Below, in pieces: positions 9,349 through 60,973 of a stretch of 64,000 nt of DNA. Within the stretch, counting starts at the first letter, position 1. Each line of letters opens with the position of its first letter. Below the pieces are notes generated by a model that was not told the DNA's origin, did not search any database, and was given only the letters and a program-made list of their open reading frames with translations. Both the position numbers and the translations under genes were made by a program. Where the stretch lies: contig CAKOMG010000002.1 in NCBI GenBank assembly GCA_934096585.1, positions 71,277-135,276 of the forward strand, read 5' to 3'. The DNA is from an uncultured Bacilli bacterium. GTDB taxonomy: Bacteria > Bacillota_I > Bacilli_A > ML615J-28 > CAG-698.

Positions 9349-9887
9349 ATGCGTAAAACTTTTACTTTACTTTTATGTTTATACTTTATTTCTTTTTTGA
9401 CAAGTTGCAATATAACAAAGAAAAAAGAATGTTTGAATATGAAAATTTCGAGAAGTTTCATTACAATAGTAAAATATATTGTTTACCTGATAATTTTAAT
9501 GAAATTTATTCCAAATTCAATTTTTATGGAAATAACCACCAGGTAGGATATACTATTGGAGTATACAACAATATATATAAAACTTGCATTCTTGATAGTG
9601 ATAAAGATGAAAAAATTCTATTTCAAGACAATAGTAGATATTTTTGGTTTAAAGAAGGATTTGTCTTTCCAAATATAGAAGAATCAGTTGTTACTAAATT
9701 ATTAATAGAAAAATTAGCTTCAAAAGGATATATTATAAAAGAAAAAGAATATGCTTTAAAAAATATTTCTATAAATGAATTTTTTACTGAATATGTGATT
9801 AATCAAAATAATAATTCTTTTTTAAATGATGAAAACAACTTTTTGACATTTAGAATTAAGTATATTTATGAAGACTATATTGTTTAA
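9349..9887 (+). pseudogene. lipoprotein gene split by a -1 frameshift at an A6 tract (9421-9426); candidate phase-variable or pseudogenised
   Basis: Frame 1 encodes a lipoprotein signal peptide, MRKTFTLLLCLYFISFLTSC...NITKKK, then terminates. Frame 0 continues as ...KEKRMFEYENFEKFHYNSK... for 150 more codons. Inserting one A in the run (A6 to A7) fuses them: ...LTSCNITKKKRMFEYENF... Confidence 0.4.
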
Positions 9888-10483: not shown

Positions 10484-10495
10484 ATGAACGTTCAT
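10484..10495. promoter_or_regulatory. perfect 12-bp palindrome ATGAACGTTCAT between the -10 box and the RBS; candidate TetR operator
   Basis: ATGAAC|GTTCAT is self-complementary. It lies 5 nt downstream of the -10 box and 9 nt upstream of the GGGTGG RBS of the TetR gene. Confidence 0.45.
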
Positions 10496-10516
10496 ATAAT
10501 GAAAGGGTGGTATAAA

Positions 10517-11086
10517 ATGAGAACAAGAAATGAACAAATTTATAGTGAAAAAAAAGCACAAATAATGGAAGCATGTTATGAATGCTATGCAGAAAATGGG
10601 TTGCATGGTACAGGTATTTCCGCATTAGCAGAAGCGGCTAATATTTCAAAAGCTTCATTTTATCTTTATTTTAAAGATATTGATGATTTGATTATTCAAT
10701 CCACAGACTATTGTATGACCAAAGTAGAAGATGATTTTATGGAAAAAGCACCGACTAATCTTCAAGATATAGAGCGGTTCATTGATGAAGTTCCTGAATG
10801 GACTGCTAAAAAACATGGAAAGAAATATCGTTTAATGTATCAAGTATATACACATCCAAAATATATAGAATATGGAAAAAAGTTTTTTGAAGGCGTAGAA
10901 AGAAGATACACAGAATATGCCAAAAAATTAGAACCTAAATTAGGAGTTTCTTATAATATTATTTTACCCTTAATATTTATTTTTGTTCGAGCATCTGTTC
11001 ATTATGCAATGTTTGAAGATAAATATTATATGTCATCACAGATGACAATTTTAAAGGAAGCGGTAAAAATGTTTAGTCAAAAATAA
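10517..11086 (+). CDS. TetR/AcrR family transcriptional regulator
   Basis: N-terminal HTH 'KKAQIMEACYECYAENGLHGTGISALAEAANISKASFYLYFKDIDDL' is typical TetR_N. Start moved to ATG 10517 (RBS AGGGTGG); the track start at 10484 lies inside the palindrome. Confidence 0.8.
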   Translation: MRTRNEQIYSEKKAQIMEACYECYAENGLHGTGISALAEAANISKASFYLYFKDIDDLIIQSTDYCMTKVEDDFMEKAPTNLQDIERFIDEVPEWTAKKHGKKYRLMYQVYTHPKYIEYGKKFFEGVERRYTEYAKKLEPKLGVSYNIILPLIFIFVRASVHYAMFEDKYYMSSQMTILKEAVKMFSQK

Positions 11087-11107
11087 TAAAAAAAAGGAGG
11101 AAATAGT

Positions 11108-12562
11108 GTGAATAAAAACAGTATTAAAAAGATTTTGCTAATAGCTATACCTATATTACTAGTAGCTATTATTGTAACACTTGGTATTATTATTGGTAAT
11201 AATATAAAACCAGATCAATATGCAACTATTACTTATGAAGAAAATGGTGGAAGTCATGTTGAAAATAAACGTTATAAAAAAGGAACTAAAATAACACTTC
11301 CTGAAACAACAAAAGAAAATAGGGTATTTAGGGGTTGGTATTTTGATATTGAATTCACTAATAAAAGTGCTGATGAAATAATAATAGAAAATGATATAAC
11401 GTTGTACGCAAGATTTGGAATTAATATAATTCTTGATGCAAATGGTGGAATATCACAAGAATCAGTAATAATTGATGAAGATGGCAAACTAAATAATTTA
11501 GGAATTGCTTATAAAGATGGTTATATTTTTTCTGGATGGTTTTATGATGTAGAATGCAATAAAAAAGTTTGGGAAACAGATGTAATTTATGAAACAATAA
11601 CTATTTATGCGGGATATTCAAAAGAAGCAGTAGGCGTTATAAAAAGATTAAAAAGTGTAAAGGATGTAAGCACAACACCAGAAGTTGAAATATATTCACC
11701 TAATATAGTTTTACATGATGAAAATTTAAATGAATATATTTATGGTGAAAATGCAAGTGGTAATGAAATAAACCTTATGTGTAAGCCTTCAAAAAAGCCA
11801 GGTTACTATATTCTTTTAACAACTCTTGATTTAGTTGAAGGTGAAAATTATTTTATTAAAACACGCACTTCAGATATTAGTTTCTGTAAAGTTGATGATA
11901 ACGAAATAGAGAATGCTGATGAACTTACTCTAACAATCAAAAAAGAAGAACGTGAAGTAATAAAGAAAAATCCAAGTATTCATATTAAAACAATGGATGT
12001 TGCCAAATTGGAAGAAGAAGTTTATACATTTATTGATCAAGATTTAGAAAAACCAGTTAATAGACTAACAATTAAAACGAATGAAATAATTGAAAAAGAT
12101 GCGATTATAACAATTGGAGAATATGATTATCCTCTGGATACTGATTACATTTGTAAAGTAATTAGTGCAAAAACTGAAAAACTCCAATATGTAATTGGAA
12201 CAGAAATTTTTGAAGATACATTTGTAATACTTGATGTTATTACTCCAAATGTTGATGACATATATGAAGAGTTAGATATTTATGGTGATAAAAAAGCAGT
12301 ATTAGAAGGAATGATTGAATTATCTGAAGAAACTGTTATTAAAAATGTTGAGGAAAACGAAGGATTTAAACGAATTAAATCATCTGTTGTTCAGTCGTTA
12401 CAAAAATCAAAATCTATTGCAGAATATGTATCAAATATAAAAGACAAAAATGAAAAAGAACTATTTATGAAACAACTTGCAGGTTTTTCATTTCAACGTC
12501 CAAAAGTAAAAGTAAATATTACAGGTACAGTTTTAGAATTTGAAATAGAACTTGGTGGATAA
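11108..12562 (+). CDS. N-terminal, membrane-anchored part of a giant surface protein, with two Listeria-Bacteroides (Flg_new-like) repeats
   Basis: RBS AAGGAGG and a GTG start. Signal-anchor KKILLIAIPILLVAIIVTLGIIIG. Repeats contain '...RVFRGWYFD...TLYARF' and 'GYIFSGWFYD'. Ends at a single TAA; the same frame stays open for the next 62 codons into the 12749 ORF. Confidence 0.6.
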   Translation: MNKNSIKKILLIAIPILLVAIIVTLGIIIGNNIKPDQYATITYEENGGSHVENKRYKKGTKITLPETTKENRVFRGWYFDIEFTNKSADEIIIENDITLYARFGINIILDANGGISQESVIIDEDGKLNNLGIAYKDGYIFSGWFYDVECNKKVWETDVIYETITIYAGYSKEAVGVIKRLKSVKDVSTTPEVEIYSPNIVLHDENLNEYIYGENASGNEINLMCKPSKKPGYYILLTTLDLVEGENYFIKTRTSDISFCKVDDNEIENADELTLTIKKEEREVIKKNPSIHIKTMDVAKLEEEVYTFIDQDLEKPVNRLTIKTNEIIEKDAIITIGEYDYPLDTDYICKVISAKTEKLQYVIGTEIFEDTFVILDVITPNVDDIYEELDIYGDKKAVLEGMIELSEETVIKNVEENEGFKRIKSSVVQSLQKSKSIAEYVSNIKDKNEKELFMKQLAGFSFQRPKVKVNITGTVLEFEIELGG

Positions 12563-12748
12563 TTACAAATTAACAAATTTAAGATTGAAGTTAGTGTTGT
12601 AATTAGTAATAAGACAGAAGTTAATTATAATTACACAATATGTAAATCAAAAAAAGTAACGTTAAATCCTTTACTTTGGTTTTACACTAATGTACAAGTA
12701 GACTTAAGTAATGACTTTTCAATTTCTTTAGAAGCAAAAGTTGAATTT

Positions 12749-15700
12749 GTGGATAGCGATGAAACTTTGAATAGAATTGATATATCAGAAGAAATTAAAG
12801 AAATTATCGATTTAAATAAGGATGCATATAATAAGTTAACAGAAGCAATTAGTGGTAACCCACTTATTGATGAAGAAGAAAGTGAATTAGAATATGTTGA
12901 TATATTTAATATACAATTAGGTGCTATTCCATTACCACTTCCAGTTATTAGTCTACAATTAGAGTTTAATGTTGTAGGATCATTAGGAGCAAGGGCAGGA
13001 CTTTACATTGAGTTTAATCATCACTATGTTGAGTCTACAACCTTAACAAATGGGACAGGAGAATTTGATGGTAGAAATAGACCAGTAATGCATGATTCAT
13101 TCAAATTCACAAGAGTTACAACAGAAAATGAAATGGATATTGCCATTACATTAAAGGGACAAGTGGGGTTTAGATGTGGTTTAGAAGCTAGGCTATCATT
13201 ATCAATTTTACAATTAAATTCTGTCGCATCTGTCTATGTATCGTTCCGTTTTGGACCATACATTGAGATTAGTGGTTTAGTAAGTTTTCGATATAGTTAT
13301 GATGCAGTAAGAAAAGTAAGTGCAACTCAAGTATATGGAGGAATATACTTAGAGGTTGGATTATTTGTAAATGCTAAACTGGGTGCCAAGTTTTTAGTTT
13401 ATAATATTAATACTGACATATTTGATACAAAAATAAAATTATATGATGTTGGTGATCGTTTAATTCCATTAGAGTTTGCGGAAAAAAGCAATTCTCCAGA
13501 TGATCCATACGTTATAACAGGTAGATATAGTGGTGTAAATATGCGCAATATTGAAATGCGCTATTTAGATATAGTCACTGGTAAAAGAGTAGTTGATAGG
13601 GCGAGTCATAATCAATATGGCGGATGTTTTGATTATGCAATTGAATTTGTGGATGTGCCAGAGTATCAAACAGATGATTATCAAAAATATGTTACTTTAG
13701 CTGGTGGGCAAGCAACATATGTTAGTAAGGCTTATCAACCTAAATCACTTAAGTTTGTTGTTAGACTTACATTAATTCCAAAGAATGGAATGTTAGCAAG
13801 TGGAATAGAACGCATTGTATATATGGAATACTATAACGCTAATGGACGAGATTTAGTGACCAAAAATAGTAAGTTTTTAAATGAATATGAAACAGGTTAT
13901 GGAACTAAGTATTCTGAAGTTATTGATTATCAAACAGTTATTGAAGGAGAGTATGTAACTCCGCCAATTACTGATGCTTCAATGTTTCCTATTCGTCATG
14001 GATACTATCTAGATATCAATGATTTATGGGAAAAATATTATCCTTATTTAGGAGATAAAGTAGATGAATCATGGGATGGAAAATTTAATAAAGTAACATA
14101 TGATGATCTTTCAACAACATTTTATCGTTTAAAATGGAAACAAAGAACATATCAAGGAAACTTCTATATTCCTGATTATGATGTTTCATTAAATGGCGAT
14201 AAATACAAATTAGCTAATAGCTTTAAAATGAATTATGTTCCTGCTTTACAATCATTTATTGTTTATACGGATTCAATGCCAATCCCAACAATAGAAGGAA
14301 AGAAATTTGGCGGCTATGAAAATACAAAAGGATTATCATTTACTAATAATTATTATGTTGTTGATAGCAGTTCTTTGGTATTTAAAGATATTGATGTTGA
14401 AGATAAAACTTATCCGATTGTTAATGTAGATAAAAATAATTATTATTACTTAAGTGGTTTTAATAGTGATAATTTAACATTTGATTTTTATGCTAAGTAT
14501 GAAGATACAGTTGTTTATACAGAAACTTATGTATTAGAAACTACTTCAACAACACGTATAAAACAAGAATATAAGCCATTTGACTATAAAGGAAAAGATA
14601 TTACGCCAATTCCTCCAAAAGAATTTGCCATTGGATCTGAATTTATACATGATGGTAAAACTTATGTTATAACTGGTTATATGGATATTAATAATAATGA
14701 TTATGCTAATAGTCGATATTACAAAGTGGCAGATATGCCTAATGTAGACAAAAATAGAATTTATTATGTTTTATATGAAAGGAAAGGTTTATCAAGTTTA
14801 CCAGTTTACTATATTAATATTAAACTTAATGGTAAGCATATCGGAAGTTATCCTGTCAAAGAAGGAGAAAAAATAGAGTATGCAACTTTAAAAATTAATT
14901 TTGATGATAAATCGATTTTAAGTAATTACTTAGATTATCCTCGTTCTTTATTGGATCAAGTATTAGAAACTGGTTATAAAATTACATGGCCTGATTTATC
15001 TAGTTATCCACAAGATATGCCAAATAAAGATTTTGATATAAATGTAACAGCTGAATTTAATTATAACACTTTATGTGCAAAATTTATATTAGATAATGCA
15101 TTACAATCATTCGTTAATAGTACAGGTGTTACTATTGAAGATGGTAAAACAGTATTAAATATTACGGGAAAAATGTGGAATTATGGTAAAGCGGATGATG
15201 ATGCTTATTATTCAATTCCAAGTTTAAATGATTATTATGATGCACAAACAAATAAATATTATACTTACATAGGCTGGAAAAATGAAAAGGGTGAAATTCA
15301 TTATGCTAATACAAGAATAGCATTTATTTCATCAGAAACTTTTACACCAGTATTTAAAGAAAGTAAAAAAGATGTAATTATTTACTTTGCAAATTATTCA
15401 GATTATGGTTATGAATATTATGAACACATACTTAAGGGTGATTATTATGGCAGAACTTTAAAAGAAGTAATGAAGGAAGCAAACATTGGAATACCATCTA
15501 GAAATGATGCAAATGGAAAAATAAAATATACATTCCTCAATTGGGGAGTTAATATTGATTCTTATATTATTGGAAGTGAAAAAGATTTAAATGGAGGTGT
15601 TAAAACTACACTTACATTTAAAGCTAATTATCAAGAAGAAAAAGAACAATATACACTTACATTTGATGCAATTGATGGCAAGTTTAACAATGGTGAAAGC

Positions 15701-18259
15701 CTAAATATAATAACTGATGAATTTGACAAAGTTATTAAATTAAATGAAATCACACCTAAAACTTATCAAACTGAAGCTGGTACATTTGTATTTGCTTTCT
15801 GGACTACGTTACCTTATGATGCGTCAACAAAAGTTACAGAGTTAGAACTTGAAATTGGAACAAGTGATAAAACATACTATGCATATTATATATTAAATCC
15901 AGCAACAATTACTCTTAATTTTAGTGGTAAAGTAGAAGTGGAAGAAACTGAAGGTACAGGGAATGTTTATTTTAATAACAATAAAAGTGATACTATTTTA
16001 AGTGTTCAAGGCACTTATGGAACTTCTTATTATGTACTTGCTAGTATGTTTAAGGTGGATGTTAAATCAAAAACATATGTTCCAAGTCATTTGAAATGGA
16101 CTGTTGATGGTGTGGAGTATATTAGTGAATTTTATAATGATAATTATATGGCTAGAATTCCATTTGATCATAATGTAGATGTAGAAATAATATTTAAGGA
16201 ACCTACAACTAAAAAAGTAACGATTACATTTATTTCAGATGGTAAATGTTACGATGTTGATGGCAATGAACTGGATGGTATATATTGTAAGGGAGTAATG
16301 GGAGACTTGCGACACTTTACAAACTATACACAGGACTATGGAACAACAGTAAAAGCACCAAATGTTTACTATTATAGTGATAATTATTATGTATTTGATG
16401 GTTATGTAACTACTGTCTTGAGTGATAGTGGGGATGCACAAGTTATTAAAGTAAAAGCAGGAGATGAAATTGTATTTGATGAAGATAGAGTTTATACAGC
16501 TGTATATCTTCATGATACTAATGCCCCTGTTGAAATTACTTTTAAATCAGAACCATATGGTGGAGTAATTGAAGAACAAGACAAAATAGATGGGTTAATG
16601 ATATTCCCTGATGGTAGTGTTGAGATTCAACATTTTGGTATTAATGGTGAATTTATCAAATTTGCTACCGAACCAAAATGTAATGGTAAAAAGTTTATTG
16701 GTTGGACTACTAATGGTAAAGATTTAATAACAATGGAAGAACTTAATAATTTAGTTTATACAGAAAAAGTAACATACTATGCTGTATTTGAAGATAATAC
16801 TGAAGGATTTAACGTAACAGTAAATAGTGGAGTTGGTGAATTTACAGATAATACAAAACAAAAGAAATTAATGAATGTTTTATTTGGTACTTTAACAATT
16901 GATTTAGAAAAACCAATCTATAATATGGACAACATGGTTTTTAGTCATTATGAAGATAAAGATGGCAATCCTGTAACAGCAATAGAACATGATATAGAGT
17001 TATATGCTTGTTATGGAATTGAAATTAATGATATCATAGGACTTAAAAAAGTAAATGAAGCACCTAATGCAAACTACGTATTAACAAAGGACATTACAAT
17101 AGGAATGAGTGCTATGCATATTGGCTTTATTGATACAATTGAATGGGAAAGTATTGGAAGCAGTTCAATTAATGGTTTTTCAGGAAAATTTAATGGTAAT
17201 GGTCATATTATAAGATTTAACGCAAGTGTAGAAACATTAGAAAACTTTGGATTATTCTCTAAAGTAAGTGGATTGGTATATAACTTATATGTAGCTGCCG
17301 CATTCGAATATCAAGGTACTTTAACAAAAGAAGCAGTACTTGGTACGTTTGCTAGAGAAGTTACAACATCTGGAAGAGTTATTGATTGTGGAAGTGGCCA
17401 AACAATTAATTTATCAATTATTACAAATAAAAAAATAACAATTGGTGGTTCAATTGGTGCCAATTATGGTTTGGTTGATGGCTTCTTTAGTTCAATGAAT
17501 GGAACTATACTTTTAGAAAATAATAGTTCAAGTTATATTGGATCAGTAATAGGTGCTAACTATGGAACTGTTAAAAATACAACACAAACAGGTAGAAATG
17601 GTAATATAGCAATTGTATTGCCACGAAGCCCTGAAACTTATATTGGTAATTTAATAGGTTATAATGAAGGATTACTTGAAAATAGCTTTGTTGATAGAAG
17701 TGTGTATATAAGCTTTATGGATGGAAGTAATAGGTATTTAACTGATCAAGTTATAGTTTCAGGAATTGTTGGACTAAATAATGGATTAATTAATGAGTGT
17801 ACTTTCTATAATAATGCCTTTTATTATCAAATAGGTAATATAACAATTGGTCAAGATTTATATTTAGTTTCTTTAGATTATGATAAAACAATGAAATTAG
17901 AAAGATTATCAGTTTATTTATGTGAAGAAACTAGTCAAGGCCCAATGTATATTTTGAAGTATATTATATATATGGATGAAAATACAACTAAGCGTGAATC
18001 TGATGATTGGGAAGAATATACTTATAGTGAATTTGCGAAAGCTTATCCTAATATTTATAATAAAATAAAAGGAATAGATACACTTATTAGTTATAATAAT
18101 ATTTCAACAAATCTACCAAATGGTAAAACAAATAATATTTCGATTGTTGATGAAGTTGGAACGGGAAATATTACTGCTCTTGCAAGTAGTTGTAATTATA
18201 ATGAAATTAAATGGAGTTATTTAAGAAGGTTATACGCAACTAATTATAATAAGTGGTAG
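12749..18259 (+). CDS. giant (1836-aa as called) beta-rich surface protein with C-terminal GLUG-type repeats; probably continuous with the 11108 ORF
   Basis: Same frame as 11108-12562 with only one TAA (12560-12562) between them. No RBS precedes the called GTG at 12749. C-terminal repeats 'GGSIGANYGLVDGFF', 'IGSVIGANYGTVKNT', 'IGNLIGYNEGLLENSFV' and 'SGIVGLNNGLINECTFYNN' match the GLUG motif (G-hydrophobic-hydrophobic-G-x-N-x-G-x-I-x-N). No LPXTG sorting signal. Confidence 0.6.
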   Translation: MDSDETLNRIDISEEIKEIIDLNKDAYNKLTEAISGNPLIDEEESELEYVDIFNIQLGAIPLPLPVISLQLEFNVVGSLGARAGLYIEFNHHYVESTTLTNGTGEFDGRNRPVMHDSFKFTRVTTENEMDIAITLKGQVGFRCGLEARLSLSILQLNSVASVYVSFRFGPYIEISGLVSFRYSYDAVRKVSATQVYGGIYLEVGLFVNAKLGAKFLVYNINTDIFDTKIKLYDVGDRLIPLEFAEKSNSPDDPYVITGRYSGVNMRNIEMRYLDIVTGKRVVDRASHNQYGGCFDYAIEFVDVPEYQTDDYQKYVTLAGGQATYVSKAYQPKSLKFVVRLTLIPKNGMLASGIERIVYMEYYNANGRDLVTKNSKFLNEYETGYGTKYSEVIDYQTVIEGEYVTPPITDASMFPIRHGYYLDINDLWEKYYPYLGDKVDESWDGKFNKVTYDDLSTTFYRLKWKQRTYQGNFYIPDYDVSLNGDKYKLANSFKMNYVPALQSFIVYTDSMPIPTIEGKKFGGYENTKGLSFTNNYYVVDSSSLVFKDIDVEDKTYPIVNVDKNNYYYLSGFNSDNLTFDFYAKYEDTVVYTETYVLETTSTTRIKQEYKPFDYKGKDITPIPPKEFAIGSEFIHDGKTYVITGYMDINNNDYANSRYYKVADMPNVDKNRIYYVLYERKGLSSLPVYYINIKLNGKHIGSYPVKEGEKIEYATLKINFDDKSILSNYLDYPRSLLDQVLETGYKITWPDLSSYPQDMPNKDFDINVTAEFNYNTLCAKFILDNALQSFVNSTGVTIEDGKTVLNITGKMWNYGKADDDAYYSIPSLNDYYDAQTNKYYTYIGWKNEKGEIHYANTRIAFISSETFTPVFKESKKDVIIYFANYSDYGYEYYEHILKGDYYGRTLKEVMKEANIGIPSRNDANGKIKYTFLNWGVNIDSYIIGSEKDLNGGVKTTLTFKANYQEEKEQYTLTFDAIDGKFNNGESLNIITDEFDKVIKLNEITPKTYQTEAGTFVFAFWTTLPYDASTKVTELELEIGTSDKTYYAYYILNPATITLNFSGKVEVEETEGTGNVYFNNNKSDTILSVQGTYGTSYYVLASMFKVDVKSKTYVPSHLKWTVDGVEYISEFYNDNYMARIPFDHNVDVEIIFKEPTTKKVTITFISDGKCYDVDGNELDGIYCKGVMGDLRHFTNYTQDYGTTVKAPNVYYYSDNYYVFDGYVTTVLSDSGDAQVIKVKAGDEIVFDEDRVYTAVYLHDTNAPVEITFKSEPYGGVIEEQDKIDGLMIFPDGSVEIQHFGINGEFIKFATEPKCNGKKFIGWTTNGKDLITMEELNNLVYTEKVTYYAVFEDNTEGFNVTVNSGVGEFTDNTKQKKLMNVLFGTLTIDLEKPIYNMDNMVFSHYEDKDGNPVTAIEHDIELYACYGIEINDIIGLKKVNEAPNANYVLTKDITIGMSAMHIGFIDTIEWESIGSSSINGFSGKFNGNGHIIRFNASVETLENFGLFSKVSGLVYNLYVAAAFEYQGTLTKEAVLGTFAREVTTSGRVIDCGSGQTINLSIITNKKITIGGSIGANYGLVDGFFSSMNGTILLENNSSSYIGSVIGANYGTVKNTTQTGRNGNIAIVLPRSPETYIGNLIGYNEGLLENSFVDRSVYISFMDGSNRYLTDQVIVSGIVGLNNGLINECTFYNNAFYYQIGNITIGQDLYLVSLDYDKTMKLERLSVYLCEETSQGPMYILKYIIYMDENTTKRESDDWEEYTYSEFAKAYPNIYNKIKGIDTLISYNNISTNLPNGKTNNISIVDEVGTGNITALASSCNYNEIKWSYLRRLYATNYNKW

Positions 18260-18450: not shown

Positions 18451-18668
18451 AATCAAGAGTTTGGAAAATGGATTGATAATGGTCCAATAGAAACTTTTTT
18501 TAGAACATTAAAAGTGAAACAATATTATATCAATAAATATTATTTAATAGAGTTATTACGACAAGCTATGGAAGAATACATAGAATTTTATAATACAAAA
18601 AGATTGCAAGCAAAATTAAAAGGCTTAACCCGATAGATTATCGAAATCAAGCCTTGATGGTTTATTTA
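18451..18668 (+). mobile_element. 3' remnant of an IS3-family transposase (OrfB C-terminus), frameshifted and 5'-truncated
   Basis: Translates to ...NQEFGKWIDNGPIETFFRTLKVKQYYINKYYLIELLRQAMEEYIEFYNTKRLQAKLKGLTR*. This matches the conserved IS3 integrase tail (...DNAxxESFFGxLKxE...YIxYYNxxRIQxKLxGLSPxxYRxQ). A +1 shift after GLT restores '...PIDYRNQALM'. Confidence 0.6.
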
Positions 18669-18742: not shown

Positions 18743-19462
18743 TTATGACATTAGTTCAATGAGTTTATAATGATATACTGTAACACCATCTTTGTTTGTT
18801 ATTCGTACGTTGTCTCTTGCACTATTAATTGCTATCATCAATTCTTCGCCTTTTAAATTGACAAGATCTGTTTCTTTGAATAATTCACTATTAATAAATT
18901 CCTGAGGACTATTAAATTTTGTGACTTTTACTACTTCAGCAAGAACTGCATCATTAGTTATTGCATCATAATCGGATAGAATACCCAAGTCACTCGCTTC
19001 AACATTATAAAGTTCATCGTAACTTGCTAATACATCAATCATTTTTCCTTCATTTTTTATTTGTATAAATCTATTAGTTTTTATGTGCGTTTTAAAATAA
19101 TGAGGATGAATAAATAAACTTTCATCAACATCTTCGTTTGGATATTTTATGGCATCATCTTGAATACAATTATTAGTATACCACCCCATATAATCAAGTG
19201 AGAAGCTGCCTTCAAAATTTGCTCTTGCCATTATTGTACCCCATACGCGCATACTACAACGTACAGCTTGGCCTGTATTTAAAACAGGAACACAACCACT
19301 ATGGTTTTGATGGGCATCTCCTCCAAAACAATAACCATTGTTACGAATTTCTTGTGCTACAGCATCAACTACTTCATCAGTTAATGGAGCATCAATATAA
19401 TCCGGATCATTCCACCATGTCCATCCTACGACTTTATAAATGATTCTATTCTTTCTTTTCAT
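18743..19462 (-). CDS. hypothetical 239-aa protein
   Basis: Clean ORF, convergent with the IS remnant. N-terminal 'VVGWTWWNDPDY...CFGGDAHQNHSGCVPV' is not assignable by eye. Confidence 0.45.
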   Translation of the reverse strand: MKRKNRIIYKVVGWTWWNDPDYIDAPLTDEVVDAVAQEIRNNGYCFGGDAHQNHSGCVPVLNTGQAVRCSMRVWGTIMARANFEGSFSLDYMGWYTNNCIQDDAIKYPNEDVDESLFIHPHYFKTHIKTNRFIQIKNEGKMIDVLASYDELYNVEASDLGILSDYDAITNDAVLAEVVKVTKFNSPQEFINSELFKETDLVNLKGEELMIAINSARDNVRITNKDGVTVYHYKLIELMS

Positions 19463-19587: not shown

Positions 19588-19852
19588 AACATTAATAAAG
19601 ACATTGAAGAGAAGAGTAGTAAATGAAAGTCTTCGTAGAGAGTTCTCGTGTGGTGAAAGAGAATAAGATGGAAGTTTATGAACATGGCCTCTGAGTCAAG
19701 TTTTTGAAATTTAGTAGGAAACTTCGGTATTGCCCGTTATAGCAATAAAGCTTGATTGAGCTTGAAATAGGCAAAAGTTATACTTTTGTGAACAAGGTTG
19801 GTACCACGTGATTATTATCTCGTCCTTTTTATATAAGGACGAGATTTTTTTT
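19588..19852 (+). promoter_or_regulatory. T-box riboswitch leader (candidate Met specifier AUG at 19668-19670) with terminator/antiterminator
   Basis: Stem-I-like AGAGA and GUGA elements. Conserved T-box sequence AACAAGGTTGGTACCACGTG at 19791-19810 (consensus AAUUAGGGUGGUACCGCG). It is immediately followed by an intrinsic terminator, CTCGTCCTT (19819-19827) pairing with AAGGACGAG (19835-19843) plus T8. Downstream genes are a methionine ABC importer. Confidence 0.7.
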
Positions 19853-19861
19853 GGAGGAAGT

Positions 19862-20833
19862 ATGGAAAAAATATTAGAAATTAAAAAATTAAAAAAACAA
19901 TTTAAAGATAACATTATATTAAATGACATAAATTTAGAGGTTACAAAACAAGATATTTATGGAATACTAGGATTATCAGGTGCAGGAAAATCAACATTAA
20001 TCAGATGCATTTGTGGATTAGAAAAAATAAATGATGGAGAAATATTGTTTGAAGGTAAGAAGGTCAATTTTGATAGTTCTTATCATCGCAATGTTTCTAT
20101 GATTTTTCAATCATTCAATTTGCTTGATCAAAGAACTGTTCTTAAAAATGTTGAAATAGCAGGTGAATTGATTCATGATAAAAATAGAAAAGAAAAAGCA
20201 TTAAAGTTTTTAGAGGTAGTTGGTTTAAAAGAAAAGATTAATGAATATCCTTCTAGTTTGTCAGGTGGAGAAAAACAAAGAGTTGCGATAGCTAGAGCCT
20301 TAATGACTAATCCTAAAATCCTTCTTTGTGATGAAGCAACATCCGCATTAGATCCAGAAACCACATCACAAATACTTGAACTATTAAAAAAATTAAATAA
20401 AAAATATGATTTAACTATTATTATGATTTCTCATCAAATTAATGTTATTGAACAAATATGTAATAAAGTGGCAATTTTAGATCATGCCAAGATTGTGGAA
20501 AAAGGAAACATTCAGGATGTGTTTATGATGCCAAAAACTGATATTGCGAAAAAAATAATATATAAAGGTCATATAAATACTGATTTAAGTGCAGGAAAGT
20601 TTATAAAAATATTTTTTCATGGAGAAATTGATAGTCCAATAGTTGCTGAAATGATTCATGAATGTAATGTGATAGTATCAATAATCTTTGCAGATTCAAG
20701 AGTTGTTGATAATAAAATATATGGTCAATTAGTTTTAAAAGTTCCAAATGATATAAGTTATCAAAAAATATTAGCTTATTTGAAATTAAAAGGTATTGAT
20801 TATGAAGAGGTGATAAATTATGAATTTAAGTGA
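19862..20833 (+). CDS. metN: methionine ABC transporter ATP-binding protein with C-terminal NIL domain
   Basis: Walker A GLSGAGKST, signature LSGGEKQRVAIARAL and Walker B LLCDEATSALD. The C-terminal approximately 100 aa is NIL-like. Start set to ATG 19862 after GGAGG; the track start at 19808 lies inside the T-box terminator. Confidence 0.85.
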   Translation: MEKILEIKKLKKQFKDNIILNDINLEVTKQDIYGILGLSGAGKSTLIRCICGLEKINDGEILFEGKKVNFDSSYHRNVSMIFQSFNLLDQRTVLKNVEIAGELIHDKNRKEKALKFLEVVGLKEKINEYPSSLSGGEKQRVAIARALMTNPKILLCDEATSALDPETTSQILELLKKLNKKYDLTIIMISHQINVIEQICNKVAILDHAKIVEKGNIQDVFMMPKTDIAKKIIYKGHINTDLSAGKFIKIFFHGEIDSPIVAEMIHECNVIVSIIFADSRVVDNKIYGQLVLKVPNDISYQKILAYLKLKGIDYEEVINYEFK

Positions 20834-21485
20834 AATCATGAAGTTGCTTATGGAAACTTTATTAATGGTGTTTATTTCAACGTGTATTACTTATTTATTG
20901 GGTTTACCACTTGGACTAATTCTATCAATTACTTCGAAAAAAGGAATTGCACCAAATAAAGTTGTTAATTTAATTTTGAGTACAATTGTAAATATATTGC
21001 GTTCAATTCCTTGTCTAATAGTTGTTGTTTTAACAATACCATTTGTCAGAGGATTATTTGGTGTAGGTACAGGAAAGTGGTATACAATTATAGTACCGCT
21101 AATAATCACGTCAGTTGGTTTTGTTGCAAGAATGATAGAACAATCTTTAAGAGAAGTAGATTATGGAAAAATAGAAGCAATTAAATCGTTAGGCGCCACA
21201 AATATGCAAATAGTTACAAAAGTATTAATACCGGAAGCTAGAGCATCATTAATAGGTGGAATTGCGGTTGTAATGGTTTCAATTATTGGCTATACATCGT
21301 TTGCATATAATATTGGCGCAGGAGGGATTATTGCGGAAATATGGCAGTTTTATTCAAAACATACAGGTAATTATTTAAACGAACCTGTATTTTGGATATT
21401 AATTGTTATTATTATAATTTTAGTTTGGACAATACAAGAGTTGGGATTATTTATTTCAAAAAAATTAGATAAAAGGAGATATTAA
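20820..21485 (+). CDS. metI: methionine ABC transporter permease
   Basis: 5-TM permease with an EAA-like loop (IEAIKSLGATNMQIVTKVLIPEA). Overlaps the metN stop. Confidence 0.85.
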   Translation: MNLSEIMKLLMETLLMVFISTCITYLLGLPLGLILSITSKKGIAPNKVVNLILSTIVNILRSIPCLIVVVLTIPFVRGLFGVGTGKWYTIIVPLIITSVGFVARMIEQSLREVDYGKIEAIKSLGATNMQIVTKVLIPEARASLIGGIAVVMVSIIGYTSFAYNIGAGGIIAEIWQFYSKHTGNYLNEPVFWILIVIIIILVWTIQELGLFISKKLDKRRY

Positions 21486-21486
21486 A

Positions 21487-22320
21487 ATGAAAAAAAGTTT
21501 AAAAGTTTTAGTTGTTTTTGTATTATTATTTATTTCGTTATTTACGCTTTGTAGTTGTAAAAATGATGAAAGTGTTATCCGTGTATGCGCTAGTGAATTA
21601 CCACACGCAGATATTTTGAATAATATAGTTAAAGAAAAGTTAAAAGAAAAAGGTTATACATTAGAAGTTACAGTGTTGGATTGGACAATGCAAAATGATT
21701 CAGTTGCTAACAAAGATTATGATGCTAATTACTTTCAACATATTCCATATTTGAACACATATCAAGGTAAAACAAAATTAAAGGCAACGTGTAAAGTTCA
21801 TTATGAACAATTAGGTATTTATTATGGTAAGAAAAATATTTCTCTTCTTGATGGAAAAACTTTTGCAATTTGTAATGATGAATCAAATGCAATTCGTGCA
21901 CTAAATTTACTATTTAGTAAAGGTGTAATAAGCGAACTTCCTGTGAATAATGATCATTTATCATTTAATGGTAATACTTGGACTGCAAGTAATGGCGTTA
22001 CTATTACTTTAATCGACGAAGGTCTTTTAGCAGCCGCGCTTAACGATTATGATTTTGCATGTCTACCTTGCAATACAGCTTATACAGGAAACATAAGCAA
22101 TGACAGAATTGTTGGGGTAGAAGATGATAAAGACCTTGTAGTCAAAAATGCTAATGTATTAGCTGTAAGAGAAGATGATTATAACAATGATTTGGCATAT
22201 AAAGAAAAAATTGATATTTTGACAAATATATTATTATCAAGTGATGTTTCTGACTATGTTAAAGCTAAATATGGACAAATTATTACTTGTAATGCAACAA
22301 CACAAATTGATTTAAGATAA
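21487..22320 (+). CDS. metQ: MetQ/NlpA-family substrate-binding lipoprotein
   Basis: Signal peptide with lipobox LCSC; NlpA-like periplasmic binding fold. Operon position after metNI. Confidence 0.8.
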   Translation: MKKSLKVLVVFVLLFISLFTLCSCKNDESVIRVCASELPHADILNNIVKEKLKEKGYTLEVTVLDWTMQNDSVANKDYDANYFQHIPYLNTYQGKTKLKATCKVHYEQLGIYYGKKNISLLDGKTFAICNDESNAIRALNLLFSKGVISELPVNNDHLSFNGNTWTASNGVTITLIDEGLLAAALNDYDFACLPCNTAYTGNISNDRIVGVEDDKDLVVKNANVLAVREDDYNNDLAYKEKIDILTNILLSSDVSDYVKAKYGQIITCNATTQIDLR

Positions 22321-42998: not shown

Positions 42999-45197
42999 AT
43001 GAAAAAATTAAAATTATTGCTAGTTATGTTTATTGGTTTATTTTTGATTTCTGGTTGTAGCAAGAATGAGTTTACAGTATTGTTTAAAGATGGTGAAACA
43101 ACTGTTTCATCAGTAGTAGTAAAGAAAGAAGCACTTGTTGAAAAACCTCAAGATTTAGTTAAAGAGGGATACGATTTTATAGGATGGTATTTGGATGATC
43201 AAAAGTACGATTTTTCTATTCCTGTAGTTTCAGATTTAACTTTAATTGCCAAATGGGATCTTAAAACTTTCACAGTTAAATTTGTAACAGAAACTGAAAA
43301 AGAAGTTAAAGTAAAATATAATGAAAAGTTAGAAAAAATAACAGATCCAGTAAAAGTAGGCTATGAATTTATTGGTTGGTATGATGGGGATAATCTTTTT
43401 GATTTTAATACTCCAATTACTAAAGATGTGAAATTAGTTGCAAAATTTGCTATAAAACAAGTGTCTGTTAAATTTGTTGTTGATGAAAAAGTTATTAACA
43501 CAATCAAAGTAAATTATAATGAAACCATCAAAAATATAATTAATGAACCTACTAAAGAAGGTTATGAATTTATAGGTTGGTATGATGGAGAAAATCTATT
43601 TAGTTTTGATACTTTAATTACAAAAGATTTAGAATTGGTGGCTAAATATAGTATTCAAAAGTTCAACGTTAAAATCGTAGTTGAAGGAAACGAAATACTT
43701 AATTCTAAGGTTGACTATAATGGTAAAATTACTGCCCCAACAGATCCAGTAAAAGAAGGTCATCAATTTGATGGTTGGTATGTTGGTGATGAAAAATTTG
43801 ATTTTAACACACCAATTACAAAAGAAACAGTTATAATAGCAAAATTTACCCCTAACCAATATAAAGTTAAATTTATTGCAGATGGAGTGGAAATTGCTAC
43901 TGTTGATGTTAGTCATGGTTCTAAGGCAGTTGCTCCAACGGCACCAGATAAAGAAGGATTTGTATTTTCTAAATGGGATAAAGACATTAGTTCTGTAACA
44001 AGTGATATGGAAGTTAATGCTATTTATGAAGTGAAGAAATGTACAGTAAAATTTATAGTTGATGAAAAAGTGATAAAAGAAGAAAAAATAGATTATAATG
44101 CAGCAGTTGTTTATCCAGCAGATCCAAGTAAAGCTGGTTATACATTTACTGGATGGGATAAAGAAGTAAAAGAAGTAAAAGAAGATGTTGAAATAATTGC
44201 TACTTTTACTATAATTAAGTATTCAATTAAATATTATGATAGTGCTAATGAATTGAGTTATCCAGAACAAAGTGAATATACAATTGAAGATAACTTCTAT
44301 TTACCAACATTTAATGTAAATTTATCTAAATTTATGGGCTGGTTTACAAATCAAGATTTTACGGGTGATGCTTTATGTCAAATATCACAAGGAATGACTG
44401 GTGATTTAGTGCTTTATGCATTAAATGTTGTAATGGAATATAATGAAGGTGTAGAATGTTGGGATACAACTCCATTTGCATCAGAAACTGATGCTGCTAA
44501 AGGAATTGATACTATTACAACGCTGCCTAAAATATTTGAACAAGACTTTTATAAATATTTAATAGACAATGATTTGTTAAGTAGTACGAAAGTAAATGAA
44601 AAGTTAAGAGTAACTAATTTTGAAGAATTTTCTGGAGACAATAAACTTCACAATAATGATCCACGAAAGATTTGGAATGACACTTCATCAAATGCTTCTG
44701 GAACTGCAGATGGTTATGCTAATTTCTTCTTTGATAAAATTGTTGTTAGAAATGATTATACAGTAGAATCAGTAGAAGGTGGTATTTTTGGTACTGAACC
44801 TTATAAGACAAAATATTTCGCACTTTTGAATACTCTAGTTGCAATGTACAAATATAAAGAAGCAAATTCAAGGTATGAAAATATAAATGCGGGTACACCA
44901 CAAGTTAAAGCCTTTCTAGCGTTTATTGTTGATGGGTATTTCTATGGTACACAAGGTGTTGCAAAAGATTATTTCAAAAGTTTACGTATGGTGGTACCAT
45001 CAATGACAACTGCATATAAAATTGATGGTTCTAGTTGTAAAGCATTTGAAGTAAATCAAAACGCTATTACAGATCCAGTTAAGGTAGGTTATACATTTGA
45101 TGGTTATTATTTAGATAAAGAATGTACTAAAAAATTGGGTACAGAGCCAACTAAGAGATTATGTACAATTTATGTTAAATGGGTAGAAGTGAAATAA
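42999..45197 (+). CDS. surface lipoprotein with 7 tandem Listeria-Bacteroides (Flg_new-type) repeats and a C-terminal globular domain
   Basis: Signal peptide MKKLKLLLVMFIGLFLISGC (lipobox ISGC). Repeats of about 70 aa, each ending in a 'VKEGYDFIGWYLDDQKYDF...TLIAKW'-type motif. The track start at 42915 overlaps the upstream gene. Confidence 0.65.
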   Translation: MKKLKLLLVMFIGLFLISGCSKNEFTVLFKDGETTVSSVVVKKEALVEKPQDLVKEGYDFIGWYLDDQKYDFSIPVVSDLTLIAKWDLKTFTVKFVTETEKEVKVKYNEKLEKITDPVKVGYEFIGWYDGDNLFDFNTPITKDVKLVAKFAIKQVSVKFVVDEKVINTIKVNYNETIKNIINEPTKEGYEFIGWYDGENLFSFDTLITKDLELVAKYSIQKFNVKIVVEGNEILNSKVDYNGKITAPTDPVKEGHQFDGWYVGDEKFDFNTPITKETVIIAKFTPNQYKVKFIADGVEIATVDVSHGSKAVAPTAPDKEGFVFSKWDKDISSVTSDMEVNAIYEVKKCTVKFIVDEKVIKEEKIDYNAAVVYPADPSKAGYTFTGWDKEVKEVKEDVEIIATFTIIKYSIKYYDSANELSYPEQSEYTIEDNFYLPTFNVNLSKFMGWFTNQDFTGDALCQISQGMTGDLVLYALNVVMEYNEGVECWDTTPFASETDAAKGIDTITTLPKIFEQDFYKYLIDNDLLSSTKVNEKLRVTNFEEFSGDNKLHNNDPRKIWNDTSSNASGTADGYANFFFDKIVVRNDYTVESVEGGIFGTEPYKTKYFALLNTLVAMYKYKEANSRYENINAGTPQVKAFLAFIVDGYFYGTQGVAKDYFKSLRMVVPSMTTAYKIDGSSCKAFEVNQNAITDPVKVGYTFDGYYLDKECTKKLGTEPTKRLCTIYVKWVEVK

Positions 45198-58624: not shown

Positions 58625-60973
58625 ATGAAAAAAAATTCACTATGCAAGGTTCTTGCGGTAAGTGTGATGTTTGTATTATCAATATTAATGCTTACAGCCT
58701 GCAACCCAAAACACGCACATGCTTTTGATTCTACAAAGTGGAAAAACGACGCAAATAACCACTGGCATCCTGCAACTTGCGGTCATGACGATTTAAAAGG
58801 TGATGTTGCAGCACATACTTTTGACGCTGGCAGAATTACAGTAGAAGCAACTGAGAAAGCTAACGGCGAAAAGGTGTACACTTGTACAGTTTGTAAGTAC
58901 GAGAAAAAGGAAGTAATTCCGCAATTAGATCATACGCATACTTTTGATTCTACAAAATGGGAAAAGGATGAAAATAACCATTGGCACCCTGCAACTTGTG
59001 GTCATACTGACCAAAAAGGTGATGTTGCAGCACATACTTTTGACGCTGGTAGAATTACAGTAGAAGCAACTGAGGAAGCTAACGGCGAAAAAGTGTACAC
59101 TTGTACAGTTTGTAAGTACGAGAAAAAGGAAGTAATTCCGCAATTAGATCATACGCATACTTTTGATTCTACAAAATGGGAAAAGGATGAAAATAACCAT
59201 TGGCACCCTGCAACTTGTGGTCATACTGACCAAAAAGGTGATGTTGCAGCACATACTTTTGACGCTGGTAGAATTACAGTAGAAGCAACTGAAGAAGCTA
59301 ACGGCGAAAAAGTGTATACTTGTACAGTTTGTAAGTACGAGAAAAAAGAAGTAATTCCACAATTAGATCATACACATAAGTTTGATATGACTAGGTGGGA
59401 ATATGATGCAAATAACCACTGGCACCCTGCAACTTGCGGACACACTCTTGAAAAAGAGGGAACAGCAAACCACACATTTAGTGAGTGGACTGTTAAAACC
59501 GAGGCTGGATACGGCGTAAATAGAGTGGAACAAAGAGATTGTAGCGTTTGTGGCTTCCATGAAGAAAAAACGATAGAAGGTACTTTAATTCCACCTAAAG
59601 CAAGAGAAATTACAGTTGGGGCTATTGACTTTACATTCAACGGCACTACTCAAAGCATAGATGGCCTTGTTACTGTGACTAATACAGAGGGTGGTATGAA
59701 TATTCGTTACTGCGTTGATGATGGTGCGGACAATTGGGTAGATACTGCACCTACTAATGCAGGAAACTATAAGTATAAAATTACTCTAAACGGAACTAAA
59801 GAATGGGCACAATGTGAAAAAGAGGATGTGTTCACTATTAAAAAGTTCGAAATCAATCTAGATAAAGAAGTGTATGAAATCAATAAAGATGAAAAGCTTG
59901 AAGGTGGATTATTTGGTGTTTCTTGTGTAGAAGTTAGTGCTTTAACTAATTCTTATACAGATTGGGTTACTGTATTAGCTCCGGAAGAAAACAACGTAGC
60001 TGGTAGACATGTTATAAATGTAGATGCTTTAACTACCGATGATGAAAACTTCACTGTTAATGCAAATACCGAAACGATTACTTTCGTTGTATATGATAAT
60101 GCAAATTTAATTACGGGTGTCCGTGATAAATTCACAATTACAAACGTTAGTGGAGTAATTGTAACAACTAAAATTGTCCAAGGCACGATAAGAGTTAACG
60201 ACGAAATCTATAACCAAGAACTTGGTAAGAAATTAATCGTTAAAAAAATGGAAATAGAGCGCAAAGCAGTAGACAAGGCAACTGTTGGCGATGAGGTTAG
60301 TCTACTTGTTGAAGGAGCAACTAAAGAAGAATTAGAGATTGGTCAAATGCTAACTAAGTTTGGTACAGTAAATAATTACAACAAATTTACTATTAAGTTA
60401 AGATTGCTTACAAAAGCTGAAGGAGGAAGAAATACTCCTATTAACTCTGGATATAAACCAACTTTATCGTTTACGTCTATTTCAAAAAGTATCATAGGTA
60501 CTATTACTTTACCTGAAGGCGTAGAAATGATGATACCTGGCGAAACTATTGAGGGCGCTATGGTTTCCTTTGATACAAAAATACCTGGTTTTGTAGGGTA
60601 TAAGTTTACAATTAGAGAAGGTGGACAAACTATAGGTTATGGTGAAGTAACAGGCATGCACTTTGATTCTACCGCACTTACTTTGAATAGTGGCGTTGCA
60701 ACTTCGGATAGCATTTATTTGTTAGAAGGCGAGAGTAGAGAATTTACAATTAGCCTTATTGTTATGAAACGCCAATATGCTAAGTATAACTTTAAAGTGT
60801 TAAATACTACAGACCTAACTATGAAGGTATATTTTTTAGATGATGAATTAACACTTGATGATAACGGAAATTATAACTTTTTTGGAACAGGCAGGCCATT
60901 TACTGTTAAAATCGTAGTTACGGCAAATAAGGCGACTACCGGAAATCTAAAAATTAGTAAAGTTGAAAGTTAG
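58625..60973 (+). CDS. secreted lipoprotein: 4 tandem Cys/His-rich 73-aa repeats + central beta domain + EF-Tu domain II/III homolog (no GTPase domain) + C-terminal beta domain
   Basis: RBS AAAGGAG before ATG 58625. Signal peptide MKKNSLCKVLAVSVMFVLSILMLTAC (lipobox LTAC). Each repeat contains 'NHWHPATCGH' and 'YTCTVCKYEK'. Residues approximately 515-692 of the track ORF align with EF-Tu D2-D3 ('LPEGVEMMIPGE', 'KAEGGRNTPINSGYKP', 'FTIREGGQTIGYGEV'). Confidence 0.7.
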   Translation: MKKNSLCKVLAVSVMFVLSILMLTACNPKHAHAFDSTKWKNDANNHWHPATCGHDDLKGDVAAHTFDAGRITVEATEKANGEKVYTCTVCKYEKKEVIPQLDHTHTFDSTKWEKDENNHWHPATCGHTDQKGDVAAHTFDAGRITVEATEEANGEKVYTCTVCKYEKKEVIPQLDHTHTFDSTKWEKDENNHWHPATCGHTDQKGDVAAHTFDAGRITVEATEEANGEKVYTCTVCKYEKKEVIPQLDHTHKFDMTRWEYDANNHWHPATCGHTLEKEGTANHTFSEWTVKTEAGYGVNRVEQRDCSVCGFHEEKTIEGTLIPPKAREITVGAIDFTFNGTTQSIDGLVTVTNTEGGMNIRYCVDDGADNWVDTAPTNAGNYKYKITLNGTKEWAQCEKEDVFTIKKFEINLDKEVYEINKDEKLEGGLFGVSCVEVSALTNSYTDWVTVLAPEENNVAGRHVINVDALTTDDENFTVNANTETITFVVYDNANLITGVRDKFTITNVSGVIVTTKIVQGTIRVNDEIYNQELGKKLIVKKMEIERKAVDKATVGDEVSLLVEGATKEELEIGQMLTKFGTVNNYNKFTIKLRLLTKAEGGRNTPINSGYKPTLSFTSISKSIIGTITLPEGVEMMIPGETIEGAMVSFDTKIPGFVGYKFTIREGGQTIGYGEVTGMHFDSTALTLNSGVATSDSIYLLEGESREFTISLIVMKRQYAKYNFKVLNTTDLTMKVYFLDDELTLDDNGNYNFFGTGRPFTVKIVVTANKATTGNLKISKVES
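58718..59374 (+). repeat. three tandem 219-bp direct repeats (copies 2 and 3 nearly identical) plus a diverged fourth copy to about 59590, inside the lipoprotein gene
   Basis: Copies are 58718-58936, 58937-59155 and 59156-59374. Copies 2 and 3 differ by only a few synonymous or conservative substitutions, and are mirrored by the near-identical antisense ORFs 58925-59143 and 59144-59362 in the track. Confidence 0.85.

Follow-up and report, generated by a model that had tools for sequence, protein, structure and literature searches.

We analysed a stretch of 64,000 nucleotides (contig CAKOMG010000002.1, positions 71,277 to 135,276; hereafter the window) from a human-gut bacterium of the Bacilli/'Mollicutes-like' type that is uncultured and has a GC content of 27%. 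Its + strand carries the gene of a giant protein, putatively displayed on the cell surface, whose reading frame is interrupted by one stop codon. Two open reading frames (ORFs), 11108-12562 (484 amino acids [aa], GTG start) and 12749-18259 (1,836 aa, GTG start), lie in a common frame of 2,384 codons (11108-18259). Translation confirmed the description given in the first-pass annotation of this DNA: a TAA at 12560-12562 is the sole internal stop, neither TGA nor an internal TAG is present in the frame, and the terminal stop is TAG. In our reading, the window very probably holds a recent loss-of-function allele of one gene and not two genes. The locus comprises the following elements.

11108-18259 (+): ancestral giant gene, 2,383 codons plus stop, broken here at codon 485.
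11108-12559 (+): stub translatable from the native start, 484 aa, with the anchor, both B-repeats and some 310 residues more.
11132-11197 (+): N-terminal hydrophobic segment seen in the translation, residues 9-30 (ILLIAIPILLVAIIVTLGIIIG), following a Lys-rich start.
11225-11617 (+): two Listeria-Bacteroides (InlB B-repeat / Flg_new) repeats, residues ~40-170, with Pfam, NCBIfam and PDB matches.
12290-13507 (+): central module, the most conserved part, residues 395-800, with four predicted helices followed by long beta-hairpins.
12560-12562 (+): premature TAA (ochre), derived from GAA (Glu485) via G>T at 12560; the next base is T (TAAT).
12563-12748 (+): segment between the stop and the first in-frame start, 62 sense codons including the family-invariant LNPLLWFY.
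12749-18259 (+): mechanically called second ORF, the 3' four-fifths of the gene left behind the stop, lacking any ribosome-binding site (RBS), signal sequence, promoter or terminator ahead of it.
17000-18256 (+): predicted C-terminal GLUG-type right-handed beta-helix with a small terminal domain, residues 1965-2383, from AlphaFold2 (AF2) modelling and Foldseek.

Given the base composition of the gene, the chance that any one random codon is a stop amounts to p = 0.096. None of the 62 codons at 12563-12748 is a stop, for which the chance probability is about 2e-3; for 1,898 stop-free codons it is about 1e-83. The other two frames of 12563-18256 contain 145 and 324 stops. Since the 62 codons hold the invariant motif LNPLLWFY, they represent ancestral coding sequence and not a spacer. 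The earlier suggestion that they continue the same protein is also borne out by alignment with the orthologues, in which the invariant columns T518-Y526 fall within this segment.

The two ORFs differ in their starts. ORF 1 has a strong RBS, the Shine-Dalgarno (SD) sequence GGAGG at 11096-11100, 7 nt 5' of the GTG at 11108. No SD-like motif was found in the 20 nt before the GTG at 12749 (tagaagcaaaagttgaattt), as had been stated in the first-pass annotation. The only other in-frame starts before 13100, TTG 12767 and ATG 13088, also have no SD upstream.

A search with the joined protein retrieved 14 homologues of 2,364-2,383 aa with 47-89% identity and 99-100% coverage. In addition, orthologues were found in 30 species-level genomes by a scan of one genome per species in which LNPLLWFY served as the search pattern. 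All 30 loci originate from uncultured human-gut metagenome-assembled genomes (MAGs), labelled in the databases as 'uncultured Bacilli/Clostridia bacterium', 'Mollicutes bacterium Phil14' or 'Coprobacillus sp. CAG:698'. The complete genes among these species-representative loci consist of one unbroken ORF of ~2,330-2,420 codons, with L017 as the single exception, and more than 100 (~110) close alleles are single ORFs as well, of about 2,370-2,420 codons and with a sense codon, mostly Glu, in place of the stop. Position 485 is occupied by E in most orthologues and by T or Q in two, and a stop was found in none of them; Gly484, directly before the stop site, is invariant in the relatives. Thus, orthologous loci, the comparison proposed along with the original observation, revealed an intact ORF of ~2,380 aa in which a sense codon stands where the window has the stop. 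The opposite arrangement considered at that time, two separate genes with an RBS-bearing start of the second one, was not found, as no orthologue is split here. Since the relatives have a single ORF with a sense codon at this position, the single-gene architecture is ancestral and the stop is derived.

Two further observations concern the family. The exceptional orthologue, L017 (CAKPZU010000075.1), has its own in-frame TGA at 707-709, at a different site, which splits it into 191 + 2,185 codons. This TGA occupies a variable column of the alignment and reflects either a separate knockout event or an error in the MAG consensus. In several relatives a second giant paralogue (2,153-2,421 aa) is located directly downstream of the orthologue (L038, 17211-23669; L006-L008, from 16309); the giant family thus forms tandem pairs in some genomes and is present as a single copy at the window locus.

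The origin of the stop can be traced to one base. The nearest distinct strain (L005), 98.6% identical to the window over 13.8 kb and with the same gene order, has GAA at 12560-12562 between identical flanks. A public protein (P0051) contains all 2,383 residues of the window protein with E485 restored. Contig L044 (ENA ERZ28615119) differs from the window at four positions in 27,152 bp (8117, 8131, 8133 and 12560), the only changes besides the stop being clustered A/C differences within 17 bp. In contig L045 (Logan assembly of ERR7738240), the source of P0051, a single difference was found in 18,531 bp, G instead of T at 12560. The sense codon of L005, L044 and L045, GAA, is one mutational step from TAA. 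As L045 and the window differ only at 12560, they represent one clone in two states, one G>T transversion apart.

Downstream of the stop, the ratio of nonsynonymous to synonymous substitution rates (dN/dS) between the window and L005 is 0.20. Outgroup-polarised changes in this region amount to 28 synonymous and 31 nonsynonymous in the window lineage and to 35 and 38, respectively, in the intact lineage. Relaxed selection across the 1,898 downstream codons was not detectable by this test, whose power is low for so recent an event. The mutation is very recent and has not yet been followed by secondary decay, and the downstream frame is intact for the same reason, the window being one base from its intact sibling.

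The same stop is present in other public data. Gene calls on at least six public contigs give exactly the 484-aa product, and the four contigs whose DNA was compared are 100.000% identical to the window, TAA included. The TAA-bearing sources are the Logan assemblies of ERR7738152 and ERR7746285 and the ENA assemblies ERZ27287048 and ERZ28614412, as well as a 341-kb contig; the comparison with L001 (ERR7738152) covered 10,834 bp and spanned the whole gene. Counted independently, TAA occurs in at least two runs and GAA in at least one run plus one further sample. Recurrence at 100% identity across runs shows that the TAA is not a random consensus error, and the sequencing error that the first-pass annotation had kept as an option is rejected on the basis of these runs and assemblies. 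The samples bear labels such as 'MERR22-1' and 'Hadza_MoBio...'; judged by these names only, they would come from the Hadza/Nepal/California deep-sequencing study (bioRxiv 10.1101/2022.03.30.486478).

The protein that has been interrupted is composed of several distinct parts. Its N-terminal membrane anchor, recognised in the first-pass annotation together with the Listeria-Bacteroides repeats, is visible in the translation as hydrophobic residues 9-30. A pattern search revealed no lipobox Cys, and no LPXTG anywhere in the protein, which leaves an uncleaved N-terminal signal-anchor as the likely attachment; judging from the translated sequence, residues 9-30 probably constitute this anchor. 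A sortase-anchored (LPXTG) adhesin was rejected, the motif being absent and the C-terminus reading ...RRLYATNYNKW. The repeats matched Flg_new (PF09479; E 1.9e-23, 82.7 bits at a cut-off of 27, two stretches) and TIGR02543 (29.9 bits at a cut-off of 20.95). When the family profile was compared with PDB sequences, only 2y5p, an InlB B-repeat, was matched (residues 41-106). The protein thus resembles Listeria InlB-type proteins in its two N-terminal B-repeats, found by Pfam, NCBIfam and PDB alike, and in being a giant extracellular repeat protein of a Firmicute. Unlike these proteins, it has no leucine-rich-repeat internalin domain and neither an LPXTG nor a GW anchor, with an N-terminal membrane anchor instead, and most of it belongs to no known family.

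The central module, with a mean column identity of 79% among 13 orthologues, matched no family in Pfam or NCBIfam. Its profile retrieved 79 representative clusters from 1.84 billion proteins, nearly all of them giant proteins, and the sampled remote members of these clusters carry Flg_new or S-layer-homology (SLH) domains. This distribution points to a rare module of cell-surface giants. As the AF2 model of residues 395-800 is of low confidence (mean predicted local distance difference test [pLDDT] 47.6), too poor for fold comparison, only its secondary structure was used. The stop lies at residue 91 of the model, inside the first beta-hairpin region, so the stub ends in the middle of the module.

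The last 419 residues were modelled with pLDDT 85.5 and predicted TM-score (pTM) 0.86. The top Foldseek matches were the IgA1 proteases 6xjb, 6xja and 7uvk (Streptococcus pneumoniae, Gemella haemolysans; E 1e-4 to 9e-4), and a weak later match was the binding region of a Lactobacillus reuteri serine-rich-repeat adhesin. The GLUG repeats claimed for this region in the first-pass annotation are supported in part: Pfam GLUG (PF07581) matches 6 of 15 orthologues (best E 2.6e-9) and the modelled fold is a beta-helix, while the window's own copy remains below the Pfam threshold, giving no match even at E up to 5. A literature search for the GLUG and Listeria-Bacteroides repeats returned no relevant paper. 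Differences from L005 concentrate in codons 1800-2383, and the C-terminal part is the most variable between strains.

The likeness to IgA1 metalloproteases (ZmpA family) is confined to the C-terminal 300 residues, modelled as a right-handed beta-helix and matched with a Foldseek probability of 1.00, with modest TM-scores of 0.35-0.40 and an identity of 13-15%; it concerns a binding scaffold and not an enzyme. The window protein has neither M26 nor another catalytic domain, and no peptidase family, M26 included, was matched by any part of it or by 15 orthologues. Its identity as an IgA1 metalloprotease (Zmp, peptidase M26) was rejected on these grounds. The giant protein resembles an adhesin or binding scaffold, not an IgA protease, and from this organization we infer its surface location and binding function.

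These data can be combined in the following model. The 2,383-aa ancestral protein would be held in the membrane by its N-terminal signal-anchor, from which two InlB-type B-repeats, the central module, further beta-rich repeats and the C-terminal GLUG-type beta-helix, probably ligand-binding, would be displayed. After the G>T transversion at 12560 had converted Glu485 (GAA) to TAA, transcription and initiation at 11108 would be unchanged, and ribosomes would terminate after 484 residues, within the central module. At most a membrane-anchored 484-aa stub would remain; the distal four-fifths, including the presumed binding helix, would be lost, and the remaining 1,898 codons would be transcribed and essentially untranslated. 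Any product from GTG 12749 would have no export signal, and any product of rare readthrough would arise in trace amounts; both the loss of the protein and the lack of reinitiation are what we infer from the sequence context. Public metagenomes still contain both the intact and the broken form of the gene within a single clone.

Such a knockout is biologically ordinary in kind. Nonsense alleles of large adhesins that appear during host adaptation and within-host evolution share with it a single substitution in a long and otherwise intact gene, the presence of the intact allele as the usual state in relatives, and the annotation of the truncated gene as two ORFs. The window allele differs from the usual adhesin knockouts in that it has been caught at the very start, at one base in 18.5 kb and with no secondary decay, in an uncultured organism. 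Of the two options in the first-pass annotation, a recent nonsense mutation in a giant adhesin-like gene is therefore the one that agrees with the intact orthologues and with the otherwise identical public GAA allele. The term pseudogene used there is to be understood as a brand-new knockout allele that still segregates against an intact one, and not as a gene in decay.

A more far-reaching proposal is that the knockout is adaptive: loss of a huge exposed protein would be favoured in some hosts, through escape from secretory IgA, escape from a phage using it as a receptor, or saving of cost, and the allele would have spread as an on/off point-mutation polymorphism. Several runs and assemblies have the TAA as their consensus, with GAA on the same background in others; another species has an independent in-frame stop (the TGA at 707-709 of L017); and the C-terminal beta-helix changes fastest between strains, as expected of an exposed and selected surface. 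The recurrence of the allele and the L017 TGA are weak hints of selection. They have to be set against the fact that only two disrupted alleles are known among more than 30 species and ~110 close alleles, that the samples may stem from one person or household, that no parallel mutations were seen within the clone, and that, at dN/dS 0.2, the gene is normally under purifying selection. On balance, an adaptive origin appears rather unlikely.

Part of the broken gene was also found in a different context. An internal piece of ~1,026 bp (window 12263 to ~13288) recurs in contigs L039-L043 (e.g., L042, 1057-2082) from three other assemblies. It carries the TAA and every window-specific single-nucleotide polymorphism relative to L005, with one private change, 12987 G>T. 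On its left the piece is joined to the opening 272 codons of a pyruvate-kinase gene. An intact version of that gene (L046) matches them at 99.6% identity as far as the junction and has relatives of the Bacilli/Mycoplasmatota type. To the right lies DNA 99.4% identical to L047, whose ABC transporter is Clostridium-like. The right junction passes through an exact 22-mer shared by both parents (GATTAGTGGTTTAGTAAGTTTT) and could therefore have arisen as an assembly chimera at k=21, an explanation that fails for the left junction with its overlap of 1 nt only. The mosaic may represent a real secondary rearrangement or DNA capture of the already-broken gene, or may consist of partly chimeric molecules.

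A partial internal copy of a surface gene at another location is reminiscent of silent-cassette systems (Mycoplasma genitalium MgPa/MgPar, Neisseria pilE/pilS). In contrast to these systems, the copy may lie in a different genome, the DNA to its right is Clostridium-like, with 99.9% identity it is hardly a variant, and a single copy was found. A silent-cassette or gene-conversion origin of the stop was not adopted, the contig being a three-part mosaic and no second copy of the gene segment being present in the 64-kb window. That the TAA is an 'off' allele under selection, silencing a dominant antigen or receptor of the cell surface and spreading among hosts in one human population, and, at the same time, the 1-kb mosaic a genuine later rearrangement or inter-species capture is distinctly improbable. 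If true, this would mean that gene loss, break-up and DNA exchange have taken place in a gut commensal within a very short time.

Several points weigh against the window as a recently disrupted single gene. A 1-kb TAA-bearing copy of the region exists in another contig context (L039-L043). Some of the ENA assemblies may re-use the same reads, so that the independent TAA samples may come down to two runs, and the evidence consists of assembly consensus, behind which a mixed population within a sample could be hidden. The short contigs L004, L002 and L003 of the TAA clone end at 12687, 12867 and 12870; given these ends and the 1-kb copy in the other contig, assembly-graph ambiguity near the site is real. 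Finally, there may be low-level readthrough or reinitiation, for instance at an ATT or GTG codon that follows the GGTGGA just 5' of the stop.

The recurring contig breaks include, besides these three ends, position 9729, where both L001 and L045 start. They suggest co-occurring strains or repeats in the metagenomes concerned; none of these ends lies at a position that differs between the window, L005 and L039.

The first of these points leads to the possibility of a sequencing or assembly artefact, in which the true genome has GAA and the TAA was perhaps imported from the near-identical 1-kb fragment. A TAA-bearing fragment, at 99.6% identity to window 12263-13297, does exist elsewhere (L039-L043), several contigs of the clone end within this region, and short-read assemblers are unable to phase 12560 with unique flanks ~300 bp away. 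Yet different pipelines, applied to at least two runs, produced five assemblies that all have T at 12560 together with G at 12987, where the fragment has T. The fragment contig has a coverage of ~3.5x according to its name, so bubble-popping would favour the chromosomal allele, and none of the samples listed with the TAA clone yielded the fragment locus. GAA was cleanly assembled in other runs of the same study, which means that the pipelines do tell the alleles apart. An artefact is thus very unlikely, and, with G at 12987 in the chromosomal contigs and low coverage of the fragment contig, the mosaic does not weaken the conclusion that one gene was recently disrupted.

Highly improbable, too, is a functional split, with the halves made as separate proteins and the second one initiated at GTG 12749 or by reinitiation. 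Gene callers do annotate the 1,836-aa protein (P0038), and an SD-like GGTGGA lies directly 5' of the stop. But none of the candidate starts, GTG 12749, TTG 12767 or ATG 13088, is preceded by an SD sequence, and the start would fall inside a module that is contiguous and conserved in all orthologues, none of which is split here. The product would also have no export signal, although the protein is of extracellular type. Promoter-like sites before the second ORF are fewer than in shuffled sequences, hence no promoter excess, and no + strand terminator was found between the two ORFs.

For programmed readthrough or recoding, in which the TAA would be usefully decoded and the full-length protein still made, the fully intact downstream frame could be quoted, but this intactness is accounted for by the recency of the change, one base from the intact sibling. 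The stop occurs in no orthologue, and its tetranucleotide is TAAT, a strong termination signal in Escherichia coli. RNA folding of the 136 nt that surround and follow the stop revealed no more structure than in shuffled sequences (z = +0.55), and no suppressor tRNA was detected in the window, whose two tRNAs are ordinary Leu and Ser tRNAs according to a tRNA scan. The low rating that the first-pass annotation had given to readthrough is thus supported by the orthologues, the stop context and the lack of downstream structure, and we consider this explanation to have hardly any probability. A reassigned code with TAA as a sense codon was ruled out, as TAA terminates 35 of the window's 43 stop-free stretches that reach 200 codons or more; the same count speaks against readthrough. 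A phase-variable switch, slipped-strand or invertible, was likewise rejected: the site, GGTGGA[G/T]AATTAC, is not a simple-sequence tract, and a search of the window at the threshold chosen yielded no inverted repeats.

The neighbourhood of the disrupted gene contains two elements that had been pointed out before.

10484-11086 (+): TetR-family regulator (Pfam TetR_N PF00440, E 8.9e-12), directly 5' of the giant gene.
~18451-18665 (+): frameshifted C-terminal remnant of an IS3-family transposase (rve_2 PF13333, E 2.8e-15, 56/56 of the profile), intergenic.

The PF00440 match bears out the TetR neighbour named in the first-pass annotation. L001, L005, L006-L008, L044 and L045 likewise have a TetR ORF 5' of the giant gene, which makes it a conserved partner in the close clade; in L009, L019, L030 and L032 this position is occupied by ORFs of 191-193 codons. 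The downstream IS3 remnant also exists, as the rve_2 fragment given above and not as the 239-aa ORF at 18743-19462 on the - strand, which was discarded as an insertion-sequence remnant because it has no family match in Pfam or NCBIfam. This ORF is conserved, at 239 aa, between the giant gene and the T-box operon, and occupies the same place in L001, L005, L044 and L045. Strains with 89% identity (L006-L008) have another downstream region, with a MerR gene and a second giant Flg_new protein of 2,421 aa. In view of the IS3 remnant and of the different downstream region in these strains, the earlier remark that the locus has a history of rearrangement was a fair one.

Further away, a T-box leader (window 19595-19830, +; Rfam RF00230, 120 bits, E 1e-26) stands immediately before a metNIQ-like ABC transporter operon (19808-22320), whose products match ABC_tran+NIL, BPD_transp_1 and Lipoprotein_9. 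Tandem direct repeats were found at 58718-59455 and 43353-43888, inside two other long ORFs: three copies of 300 nt, 219 nt apart and 86-94% identical, and three copies of 137 nt. The two ORFs probably encode repeat-domain proteins.

For annotation, the 484-aa and 1,836-aa calls are to be merged and flagged as one disrupted gene, and the 1,836-aa 'protein' with its false N-terminus should not be propagated as a member of the family. The locus provides a clean, datable knockout polymorphism of a giant surface protein from an uncultured gut commensal, in which both alleles share one clonal background. Once metadata on the samples are added, this polymorphism could reveal whether pressure from host or phage leads commensals to discard such proteins. 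The giant family itself, present in at least 30 species and uncharacterised, may be a relevant factor of host interaction.

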